From Escherichia coli (GTDB taxonomy: Bacteria; Pseudomonadota; Gammaproteobacteria; Enterobacterales; Enterobacteriaceae), in the NCBI RefSeq assembly GCF_024298765.1, contig NZ_CP101211.1: a stretch of DNA of 64,000 nucleotides, one strand, 5' to 3'. This document shows positions 48,001-51,000 of this stretch, piece by piece (position 1 is the stretch's first letter; every line of letters starts with the position of its first letter). Position numbers: made by a program.

Positions 48001-51000
48001 AGCCAATGCGGTGATCGGGCATTATAATTTGGTCGGGCTATTATACGTGGGTAAAGGTAGTGGTAGGGAGAGGATCAGGTTAAATTGCATTTTCCCGGTT
48101 GCCTTCCCTGGCCTACCGGTTTCAGGTCAGACGCTAAGACCAGCGGTAATACTTAAAGTAGTCCTCATTTACAGCCAAAAACTCCCTTAAACCGTTCATT
48201 AATCCCTTTTCAAACGCTGTAACGATAAACCGGTATCCGTCCAGTGTTTCAATGTAGTAGATCCCGCCCGGTGTTATTCCAACATGCAACACCTCGGCTG
48301 TCATCATAAACTGGCCTTCCGGAAAATCATGCGACAGGTATATAAAACCCGTCGTGGCCGGTGCGGGTGTGGCATTCACTAAGACACCGTTAAACTGCTG
48401 CCCGTGCCTCGCCGGTACAAGCTCACTTCCCCTGGTTGACTTATCGAGCAGCCCCTTAACATCTTTTTGCTCTTTAGATGAGGTATAGCCCCGCACATCA
48501 CTCCCATCACCTGGGCGAGAGCCGGTGCCGACATGTGCAAGACGACGGTAAGCGCTGCGCATATTGATGTGGCAGGATGCCCCGGCTCTACCCTGAAGCC
48601 TTACGCCAAAATCTTCGCAAAGTAATAAAATCTGACGTAGCTGGTGTTCATACACGGACGCAGAAAGTGAAAGGTTGAAACTGGAAAAGGTCAGTTCTAA
48701 AACCTTTTCCCGTTTGTCATTGAAATGTGCTTCCAGCCTGATGATTGGCTTTTCCGACATTGCAAAAGCTTTGTCCGTTGCTCTGTACCGGCATTCATCT
48801 CCGAAACATTCTTCAACAACGCTGGCTATAACCGTGTCGTGATCGCCATCTTCCGGAGCTGGCACAAAGATTTCAAATTGTGCCGGTGTCTCCGGCTCCA
48901 GCAGAACGGGATATAAACGCGGAGAATTAAGCAATGCGCATTCAGAATTAATGAGCTTAACCCAGGCGCTTTTGTCGTCCGGATCCTTAAGCTGCTGTCC
49001 AAGGTTATCGCAAAAGTCTACTATCTGACGGGTATGCTCATCCGTGACTGCACAGATCAGGTTAAGACCATGCGTGGCCATACTCAATTCCCGGGTTCGG
49101 GACTGGGAATTGATCGACCAGGGGTTAAGTGAAAGCGAAATAGGGCTTATGGAAGGGACGACCGTCTCATTCTGCAAATCTGTAAGCTGGCAGTTCGCAG
49201 TAGGCTTCGGGGAAAGGGTACTAAATATGTAACTTGCCTGTTGTTTAGTACTGGCCTGGATATAAAACATCGCGTCCATGCTTGTATCCCGGGATGAAAT
49301 TGAAAATAGCTTCATTTTTAACCTTAATGGATGAGCGATTTATAGTCATGTGCTGACAAATGGACATTATGTGCGCCATCATTCCATTCAAAGAATAATC
49401 GATACTTAGAGTTTACTCGAATGGAGGAATAACGGTTTGACGTCATTCTTAAGCGTTCATAACGCAAGCTGTTGGATAATAACTCCCGCTCACTCTGGAC
49501 ATTATCCAGCGTTTCGAGTCGACACAGAATCGCGTTAATAATTTCAGAAGGAATACCTGCCGTTGTTTTTCCATTACGGAAGAACTTTTCAAGCCGTCTG
49601 TCTTTAAATGAATGGATCATAGTTCCTCCGTAATAATTGACCTTAAAATTAAATTAAAAGGGCTTTGAATTAATGAATCCCTAAAATGCGGGCGGCGACT
49701 GCCAGCTGCTTATCACTTAACTGACGCTGGTGGGTTAAAGAAGACTTAAGGCTTTCCAGAAAATTATTACTGCTGGATTGCTGGGTGATTGCATCAACCA
49801 TTTTTTGATGAGATCTGCACCATGCATTGAACGCAGAGTTGTGGGCGTTTTCAGTCCTCAAACGCTCGTTTTGCAAGGATGCTGACACTTTGCGGGCAGC
49901 TTGAGCATTAATGCGGTACAGCGCATTCAGCGTGTAAGCAGTGCGGGTCGTTTCGAGGCTGTAACCCGTGGCTTTACAAGCCATACAGCGACTTCTATAA
50001 AAATGCTTACGCTCTCCCCGACCATTGCATTTATCGCAAAGAATACGAAAAGTATATTCCGCAGTACCTTTTACAGAATCAACACAGCGGATTTTTGCGC
50101 TGGAGATTTCAATTCCACTGCGATCATAATATTTGGTCATAATGTGATTCCTCCGGTTAGTTCTGGAGTAATCATGACAGAATGAATCTACTGGCTAATA
50201 ACCTGAGAGTAAATATTTTAAAAAAACATTGAGAGAGGGTCTGCAAATTTATACACGAAGGATTCAAATATAATTTTGTTTAAAAAATTAAGAGCATTCT
50301 GAAGTAAAAGTGCATCAAAAAGCATTCATGGATAAATCATGTACTGGTGCCAGCCATTTAAACGCGGGCATTGTTCCGGAGTGATTAAACGGTTTAGCAT
50401 CATAGATTAAAACCAAAAGGAAGGCGTCCTTCCCGTCTCGGGAATATTACTTTCCCGTTTGCAATTTAAGAGCCACTTAATGAGAAAGTAATAATTAAGT
50501 CATGCTCAACTCTACATATTACATTGAGGATGGCGTAACAGGGTACGGCATACTACCGCACCCTTCTGAAGAGCTTATGTTTGAGGGAATTCTATAGCAA
50601 ATGTGGCCGTGCCAGATTGACCACTTACAGCGGGAGTAACGGGATACGTGCGCTCTTCACCATTACCAAGATCCAGTGACAGCGATTTAGTTTCACCAGG
50701 CTGGACCGTAACTCCGGCAACCGTAACGCCGAACTGGGCATTTTTCTGAACAGTCAGGGTTCCGTTTAACTGTCCGGTAATGATAGAACCGTCCTGACGC
50801 CGCAACACACTGGTTCGGATGATGGCCAGCGGCGTGTTGTCCGTTGCTTTCAGTGCTACGGCTGTGGCCAGCGTCTTGAGATTATCCAGCATAATCAGAT
50901 TCGCAGGCTGGTAGGTAAAATTAAGCGTTTTAGTGGTCCGGTTACCTGATTCGTCAATAGCCAGTGCCTCCAGATGATACATCTGTCCCGATTCGTCAGT

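Follow-up and report, generated by a model that had tools for sequence, protein, structure and literature searches.

HigBA, the toxin-antitoxin (TA) system of Rts1/Proteus vulgaris, is plasmid-borne and bicistronic: the gene for a PF05015 toxin comes first and is tightly coupled to a second gene, which encodes HigA, an antitoxin with an XRE-type helix-turn-helix (HTH). In MqsR-MqsA, a RelE-fold toxin stands beside a protein with a CxxC...CxxC zinc site; the gene for this antitoxin follows that of the toxin, and the protein combines a zinc domain at the N terminus with an HTH at the C terminus. The toxin-antitoxin-chaperone (TAC) systems of the HigB-HigA-SecB kind are three-gene operons and, according to a preprint, can function in phage defence (bioRxiv 10.1101/2024.02.24.581848). 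Finally, type II TA systems with swapped partners (NetFlax; the "novel antitoxins" of SLING) have been recognised at scale, and some have been validated (PMC10440598, PMC7192599). Here we describe three adjacent genes in a 64,000-nucleotide (nt) stretch of Escherichia coli DNA (NCBI RefSeq assembly GCF_024298765.1, contig NZ_CP101211.1), hereafter the window. They encode, in order, a 156-amino acid (aa) zinc-ribbon protein, a 98-aa HigB-like protein and a 393-aa protein, referred to below as the partner. The trio is a conserved block of IncHI resistance plasmids and probably forms an unusual TA-like module, in which HigB is paired with a protein other than HigA.

As in HigBA, the toxin homologue belongs to PF05015, keeps the equivalents of D90 and Y91, is plasmid-borne and is encoded ahead of a tightly coupled second gene. 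However, this second gene is 393 codons long and its product has neither an HTH nor any similarity to HigA; the equivalents of H54 and H92 are changed, and a co-oriented zinc-ribbon gene lies upstream. The adjoining genes for a RelE-fold toxin and a zinc-site protein recall MqsR-MqsA, except that the zinc-ribbon gene is upstream (mqsA is downstream) and specifies a protein of the DnaJ CXXCXGXG type, which lacks an HTH, does not match Pfam MqsA and is encoded apart from HigB in Klebsiella. The presence of a HigB-family toxin in a three-gene arrangement is shared with TAC systems, but the locus lacks both a SecB-like chaperone and a HigA bearing a chaperone-addiction tail; the two neighbours did not match SecB or another chaperone family in Pfam or NCBIfam, the sole related match being a weak DnaJ zinc-finger motif. 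As in the NetFlax and SLING pairs, a known toxin domain is combined with a neighbour that lacks annotation and occupies the antitoxin slot; the trio differs from those pairs in that the partner is much larger than the usual antitoxin, is confined to IncH-type plasmids and tolerates truncation.

The HigB-like protein and its neighbours

The window is part of an IncHI2 plasmid backbone. The 2.7-kilobase (kb) region containing the trio is at least 95% identical in more than 1,000 large conjugative plasmids, carried by Escherichia, Salmonella, Enterobacter and their relatives. Inspection of the open reading frames (ORFs) reproduced exactly the limits assigned to the three genes in an earlier note on this DNA, namely 49670..50140 for the zinc-ribbon gene, 49324..49620 for the HigB-like gene and 48134..49315 for the partner gene, all on the minus strand. 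The interval of 49 nt between the first two genes also agrees with that note. The stop codon of the HigB-like gene and the start of the partner gene are indeed closely spaced, although by 8 nt and not the 9 bp first given, which is the difference between the two coordinates. Every gene has a plausible ribosome-binding site: a good Shine-Dalgarno sequence, GGAGGA, ahead of the zinc-ribbon and HigB-like genes, and AAGG ahead of the partner gene. RefSeq labels the three products, in order, as hypothetical protein, RelE/ParE-family toxin and "flavin reductase family protein".

The 98-aa protein had been aligned along its length with HigB-family toxins, and the profile searches bear this out. Residues 4-88 match 85 of the 91 positions of the Pfam model HigB-like_toxin (PF05015; E 6.2e-18), the protein matches PHROG 3066 ("toxin of TA system"; E 8.9e-18), and P. 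vulgaris HigB, whose structure has been solved (PDB 4mct), aligns with it from end to end (E 7.5e-6). In this alignment, D90 and Y91 of the P. vulgaris protein are kept as D92 and Y93. The protein is basic, with an isoelectric point (pI) of 9.6-10. Its gene is the most constrained of the trio: the ratio of non-synonymous to synonymous substitution rates (dN/dS), in the comparison with IncHI1, is about 0.04, whereas the zinc-ribbon gene has about 0.11 and the partner gene 0.15, values that are approximate since dS is near saturation, and its product is 60-90% identical across lineages versus 30-65% for the neighbours. About 1,300 plasmids carry the gene in intact form with hardly any variation, and the segment encoding the C-terminal residues SSIRVNSKYRLFF...LSAHDYKSL is under very strong purifying selection. 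The HigB-like gene is a genuine, well-conserved member of the HigB family and is not decaying. The degenerate locus that the earlier note allowed for is contradicted by these data, as none of the three genes is broken and purifying selection acts on each.

For the 393-aa partner, profile and fold searches confirmed the absence of any recognisable HTH, ATPase or nuclease motif and extended it to known antitoxin domains. The protein has no significant match in Pfam, NCBIfam, PADLOC or PHROGs; an HTH was not found by Pfam, NCBIfam or PDB profile searches, and alignment to canonical HigA with hhalign gave a probability of 0.1%. A word-indexed search of 5.8 billion proteins returned about 20 partner clusters, 391-394 aa long and down to 29% identical, and an exhaustive search by profile, covering 1.84 billion representatives, returned just two full-length clusters, plus fragments. 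Residues M1 and K2 do not vary among the 15 aligned homologues, which indicates that the start at 49315 is correct and that the 381-aa start used in RefSeq is not. Many RefSeq/PGAP records begin the protein at M13 (381 aa) and name it "flavin reductase (family protein)"; neither profile nor fold evidence supports the flavin mononucleotide (FMN)-binding split barrel that this label implies.

The architecture of the partner, which is previously undescribed, was examined in an AlphaFold model built on the family alignment (predicted local distance difference test, pLDDT, 71; predicted template modelling score, pTM, 0.63). In this model, the N-terminal part appears as a tandem duplication of an alpha/beta module of about 110 aa, rich in beta-beta-alpha elements; consistent with this, hhalign aligns residues 18-110 with residues 150-241 (probability 95.8%, E 6.7e-9). 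The first copy would comprise residues 1-130 (48926..49315; pLDDT 60-92) and the second, acidic copy residues 131-242 (48590..48925; pLDDT 75-91). They are followed by a basic, low-confidence linker with short helices (residues 243-299, 48419..48589; pLDDT below 50 at 244-274) and by a predicted PH-like beta-barrel capped by a C-terminal helix (residues 300-393 and stop, 48134..48418), all encoded on the minus strand. The second copy has a pI of 4.5-4.7, and the partner as a whole is acidic, in three of four lineages. An initial impression that the N-terminal units resembled the HicB N-terminal domain found support in no search and was dropped, and the exhaustive profile search found the duplicated module beside no other toxin.

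Residues 300-393 are the best-conserved portion of the partner. The same C-terminal domain is also found by itself, as a family of separate proteins of 110-145 aa that end in ...WS, in plasmids and metagenomes. This family corresponds to no Pfam family and gives weak matches to PHROGs 11960, 2063 and 8840, all phage proteins of unknown function. Three stand-alone contexts were inspected; none has a linked toxin, the surroundings consisting of small unknown genes. In one context (L008), the stand-alone gene (3989-4411) overlaps a small CxxC zinc-finger gene upstream, and a further homologue lies at 5965-6351 of L017. Scans of viral contigs for relatives of this domain or of the zinc-ribbon protein gave no confirmed loci.

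The 156-aa protein contains, as first read, one CxxC...CxxC arrangement (C35xxC38...C52xxC55), a single site of the DnaJ type (CxxCxGxG...CxxC), followed by a C-terminal helical region. The Pfam match to DnaJ CXXCXGXG is weak (E 9.8e-4), as is an NCBIfam match, while PHROG 4046, of unknown function, matches at E 3.9e-12. The protein is strongly basic (pI 9.8 here, 9.3-9.8 overall); it has no Pfam match to MqsA or to another antitoxin family and no similarity to XRE-type HigA. The three families are equally narrow in distribution, each represented by about 20 clusters among the 5.8 billion proteins.

Conservation across IncH-type lineages and natural disruptions

The order zinc ribbon-HigB-partner is kept, contiguously, in five divergent IncH-type lineages that include about 1,300 IncHI1/IncHI2 plasmids. 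With the IncHI2 proteins of the window as reference, the zinc-ribbon, HigB-like and partner proteins are 65%, 90% and 63% identical in IncHI1; 56%, 83% and 47% in lineage L006; 47%, 65% and 36% in L026; and 34%, 60% and 30% in L002. The spacer between the HigB-like and partner genes measures 8-15 nt in the four other lineages, and that between the co-oriented zinc-ribbon and HigB-like genes 40-52 nt. The flanks vary: IncHI2 and L006 alone have an immunoglobulin (Ig)-like gene upstream, and L006 has acquired a TacA-TacT pair downstream. Record counts in the plasmid collection are nearly equal: 1,303 for the partner, 1,297 for the HigB-like protein (identity of at least 80%) and 1,297 for the zinc-ribbon protein (identity of at least 60%).

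Relatives outside this clade have other neighbours. The nearest, 38% identical to the HigB-like protein, is followed 25 nt downstream by an HTH_3 HigA, in the same slot as the partner. In Klebsiella plasmids of the IncHI1B/FIB and IncHI5 types, a 103-aa HigB-like protein (42-44% identity) ends in ...LTAHAHA, without the D-Y-K motif; its gene is followed by an unrelated, unannotated gene of 105-119 codons and has no zinc-ribbon gene upstream. An HTH was sought with Pfam in these downstream products, as well as in those of the four small genes downstream of the trio, and was not found; nor does the 64-kb window contain a HigA-like ORF anywhere. The Klebsiella arrangement (4001-4658 of L018; 4001-4641 of L019) is a second non-canonical HigB pairing, whose position with respect to an orphan DNA methyltransferase gene downstream is the same. 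The zinc-ribbon homologue of Klebsiella plasmids ("YuiA family", about 30% identity) is found elsewhere, directly upstream of an Ig-like protein gene (4601-7039 in L020), so the zinc-ribbon gene has an existence independent of HigB. The idea of a three-gene module thus stands in part: the trio stays contiguous in five lineages despite changing flanks, whereas in Klebsiella the zinc-ribbon gene is separate and the HigB-like gene has an unrelated partner. Zinc-ribbon and Ig-like genes are neighbours in IncHI2 and L006 and also, with their order reversed, in Klebsiella IncHI1B plasmids. This adjacency hints at a functional link between those two genes rather than between zinc ribbon and HigB. A 392-aa "DNA-binding protein" encoded next to the Klebsiella zinc-ribbon homologue proved unrelated to the 393-aa partner.

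Natural disruptions were surveyed by comparing equal tiles of 450 bp with about 1,025 IncHI2 plasmids. The distance over which matches are joined depends on query length, so that split counts are comparable only for queries of equal length; the records are not independent, the counts are descriptive only, and some split matches are record-origin artefacts. The zinc-ribbon tile gave no partial match and 2 extra split matches, and the HigB tile 3 and 4, respectively. Partial and extra split matches numbered 10 and 10 for partner codons 1-150, 8 and 27 for codons 123-272, and 9 and 9 for codons 245-393.

Inspection of individual cases revealed several truncated partner genes beside an intact HigB-like gene. 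In one, IS903B is inserted after codon 154 and the remainder of the gene is lost, the HigB-like gene being identical and intact. A chromosomally integrated IncHI1-like copy carries a deletion past approximately codon 211, IS21 is inserted at approximately codon 250 in a truncated protein cluster of 44 members (probably a spreading lineage), and IS1634 is inserted at codon 287. The IS21 and IS1634 insertions fall in the linker or just past it. Altogether, at least 154 N-terminal residues of the partner remain, next to an identical HigB, in four of the five truncations inspected; the fifth is discussed below. Hence, HigB can be carried without the C-terminal 60% of the partner. Two cases in which HigB was lost were also inspected. 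L015/L016 have frameshifts in both the HigB-like and partner genes, with the zinc-ribbon gene intact, and in plasmid pEC17-AB02384 an IS1-mediated deletion has removed the 3' half of the HigB-like gene together with the partner gene, leaving the zinc-ribbon gene. On these two examples, HigB and partner tend to be lost together. In none of the inspected cases is the zinc-ribbon gene lost. Across about 1,029 IncHI2 plasmids, different IS elements (ISKpn26, IS903B, IS21 and IS1634) have repeatedly entered the partner gene, and the adjacent 450-bp zinc-ribbon stretch is uninterrupted.

Possible neutralisers of the HigB-like protein

We tentatively prefer, on sequence comparisons, a reading in which the trio is a HigB-type toxin module neutralised by a protein other than HigA, most likely the N-terminal module of the partner. 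The trio would then be a backbone operon of IncHI-type conjugative plasmids centred on a functional HigB/RelE-type toxin, which by family precedent would act as a ribosome-dependent mRNA endonuclease. The canonical HTH-containing HigA would have been replaced, its slot being taken by the 393-aa protein, translationally coupled 8-15 nt downstream. The N-terminal module, of which roughly the first 150 residues would be enough, would bind and neutralise HigB; the dispensable PH-like domain may be an accessory ligand- or protein-binding domain, with a regulatory or sensor role; and the zinc-ribbon protein would have its own function, either as a regulator or as a neighbour that is transcribed along with the others. 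The module might serve in plasmid addiction, or else in competition with, or defence against, other mobile elements. Toxicity, the identity of the neutraliser and the biological role are inferred in this reading, which fits several features: the family membership and strong constraint of HigB; the tight coupling of the partner gene in the HigA slot, where the nearest canonical relative has a HigA; a gene order and spacing like those of higBA, kept in five lineages down to 30% partner identity; the near-equal record counts and similarly narrow distributions of the three proteins; the decay of HigB together with the partner, the N-terminal fragments that are kept and the independence of the zinc-ribbon gene; and the Klebsiella HigB-like gene, which again has a sole tightly linked unknown gene downstream. 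The pairing of a basic HigB with an acidic partner in three of four lineages lends weak support.

Several observations weigh against this reading. Partner tiles are broken more often than the HigB tile, the reverse of what is expected of an essential antitoxin. In the fifth truncation mentioned above, found in a singleton plasmid, ISKpn26 is inserted at partner codon 24 and HigB is intact. With at least four independent insertions and one deletion beside an intact HigB, the full-length partner is not an indispensable antitoxin. The partner also has no DNA-binding domain with which to autoregulate, and it is four times as large as antitoxins usually are; moreover, it is not acidic in the most divergent lineage, so that charge complementarity is inconsistent there. 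Synteny runs on from the trio into neighbouring backbone genes (the downstream small genes and a methyltransferase), which implies that the contiguity of the trio partly reflects common plasmid ancestry. Lastly, one report lists H54, D90, Y91 and H92 as critical in P. vulgaris HigB (PMC5027501), and two of these four residues are changed in the alignment, H92 to K94 and H54 to E55; position 55 is K in the most divergent lineage, L002. The same report describes the active sites of RelE-family members as notably variable (PMC5027501); the substitutions of H54 and H92 therefore do not show inactivity, nor does the sequence reveal activity.

That variability counts against a different explanation, rather unlikely in our estimate, in which there is no TA system at all. 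Here, the HigB-like product would be a RelE-fold protein that is non-lethal or has been domesticated, such as a regulator of plasmid or host genes that acts on translation or RNA, and the neighbours would be unrelated backbone genes, adjacent by descent. The replaced active-site histidines would fit such a protein, as would the Klebsiella relatives without the C-terminal D-Y-(H/K) motif, the retention of HigB beside partners truncated as early as codon 24, the want of an autoregulatory DNA-binding domain (by Pfam) and of any operator palindrome, the synteny reaching past the trio and the lack of a PADLOC match. It accords less well with the very strong purifying selection on the C-terminal segment of HigB, with the tight HigB-partner coupling that persists in five lineages while the flanks change, and with the joint decay in L015/L016. 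Should the protein be non-toxic, it would represent a well-conserved case of a RelE-fold protein put to another use. A TA system might, alternatively, have its antitoxin upstream. An antitoxin-first order is found in relBE, and a zinc-binding antitoxin in MqsA. In such a scheme, the zinc-ribbon protein would be the real antitoxin and the 393-aa gene a dispensable third component or passenger. The repeated hits in the partner gene versus the unbroken zinc-ribbon tile are what one would expect; the zinc-ribbon gene is co-oriented, 40-52 nt upstream with no intervening terminator, its distribution is as narrow as that of HigB, and its product has a size typical for antitoxins. Yet this product is as basic as the toxin, is without a Pfam antitoxin match or similarity to HigA, persists intact where HigB is broken and, in Klebsiella IncHI1B plasmids, is encoded far from the HigB-like gene, which argues for a HigB-independent function. 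We regard this scheme, the chief competitor as to which protein neutralises HigB, as unlikely, somewhat more so than the absence of a TA system.

Two further possibilities concern the partner itself. It might hold HigB inactive as part of a plasmid abortive-infection or anti-competitor system, its PH-like domain sensing a phage protein or one from an incoming element and thereby freeing the toxin. The partner is built of modules, and its C-terminal domain also circulates separately and is related to phage protein families. This is suggestive, as are a neighbourhood rich in orphan methyltransferases, with an HNH protein and a PAPS-reductase-family protein, and the enrichment of TA genes in anti-defence islands of plasmids (PMC11541004). 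However, none of the three proteins matched a defence model of PADLOC-DB 2.0 at E values up to 1, the presumed sensor domain has been lost repeatedly with HigB still retained, and the stand-alone C-domain contexts inspected showed no linked toxin; such a system is accordingly quite improbable. It is very hard to credit, on the other hand, that the 393-aa protein hides a cryptic HTH and that the locus is an ordinary HigBA, or that it is a decaying pseudogene. The former has on its side only the prior expectation for HigB genes and the chance that the RefSeq mis-start and mislabel obscure features; the HTH searches, the absence of a HigA-like ORF from the window, and the intactness of and selection on the three genes effectively exclude both. 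Returning to neutralisation by the N-terminal module, a fuller form of it can be envisaged, in which the toxin would be controlled by a duplicated alpha/beta neutraliser fused to a PH-like sensor, a domain that also circulates by itself in plasmids and phages, the DnaJ-type zinc ribbon would possibly be a third component, and the role would lie in establishment, inter-element competition or abortive infection rather than addiction. This undescribed IncH HigB system is possible but, taken as a whole, doubtful.

Plasmid context

Among the major carriers of resistance, whether multidrug, mcr-1 or typhoid-associated, are the IncHI1 and IncHI2 plasmids, and the trio is present in about 1,300 of 72,556 sequenced plasmids. 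Interest in the locus rests mainly on this very common, clinically important backbone and on the fact that the trio is directly testable. A literature search found no functional study of the three proteins and, among the papers covered, none that cites their accessions; surveys list the locus as "higB flanked by hypothetical proteins" or "higBA", and no antitoxin is identified in them. Identifying what restrains HigB would define a new antitoxin or controller fold, would correct a widespread misannotation ("flavin reductase", with a wrong start codon) and would show whether the module aids the persistence of IncHI plasmids.

The trio promoter is presumed to lie in the AT-rich region 5' of the zinc-ribbon gene (50141..50417, minus strand), where no consensus promoter scored above shuffled sequences. 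A terminator-like hairpin at 50434-50418 ends the preceding Ig-like gene; no terminator-like site was found between the genes of the trio. Operator-like palindromes and inverted repeats at the locus do not exceed chance, and no RNA family was detected between 40 and 58 kb of the window.

Genes for Ig-like domain proteins of about 800 aa flank the locus at 50575-52992 and 58518-60938. Proteins of that kind have been reported to be necessary for IncHI conjugation (PMC6764697). The surroundings form a long co-oriented run of small unknown genes, including 44321-45571, 56240-57064 and 38753-41137, which also holds orphan DNA methyltransferases (one with an Mrr_N domain), the HNH protein and the PAPS-reductase-family protein (794 aa). 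In its composition, this run resembles the plasmid anti-defence or establishment islands in which TA genes are enriched next to orphan methyltransferases (PMC11541004). In other lineages, an apparently orphan RES-domain protein is encoded a few genes downstream of the trio (8735-9121 of the IncHI1 locus L011), and the TacA-TacT (GNAT) pair of L006 occupies 6295-7046, immediately downstream of the trio.

Tra1-type transfer genes are found on the plus strand at 9234-14470, about 35 kb from the locus, and the divergent intergenic region at 7252-7957 is the likely transfer origin (oriT). A putative relaxase of 1,050 aa and a putative coupling protein of 694 aa were called by size and position alone. 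The position of the trio on the relaxase side weighs weakly against its belonging to the plasmid leading region.

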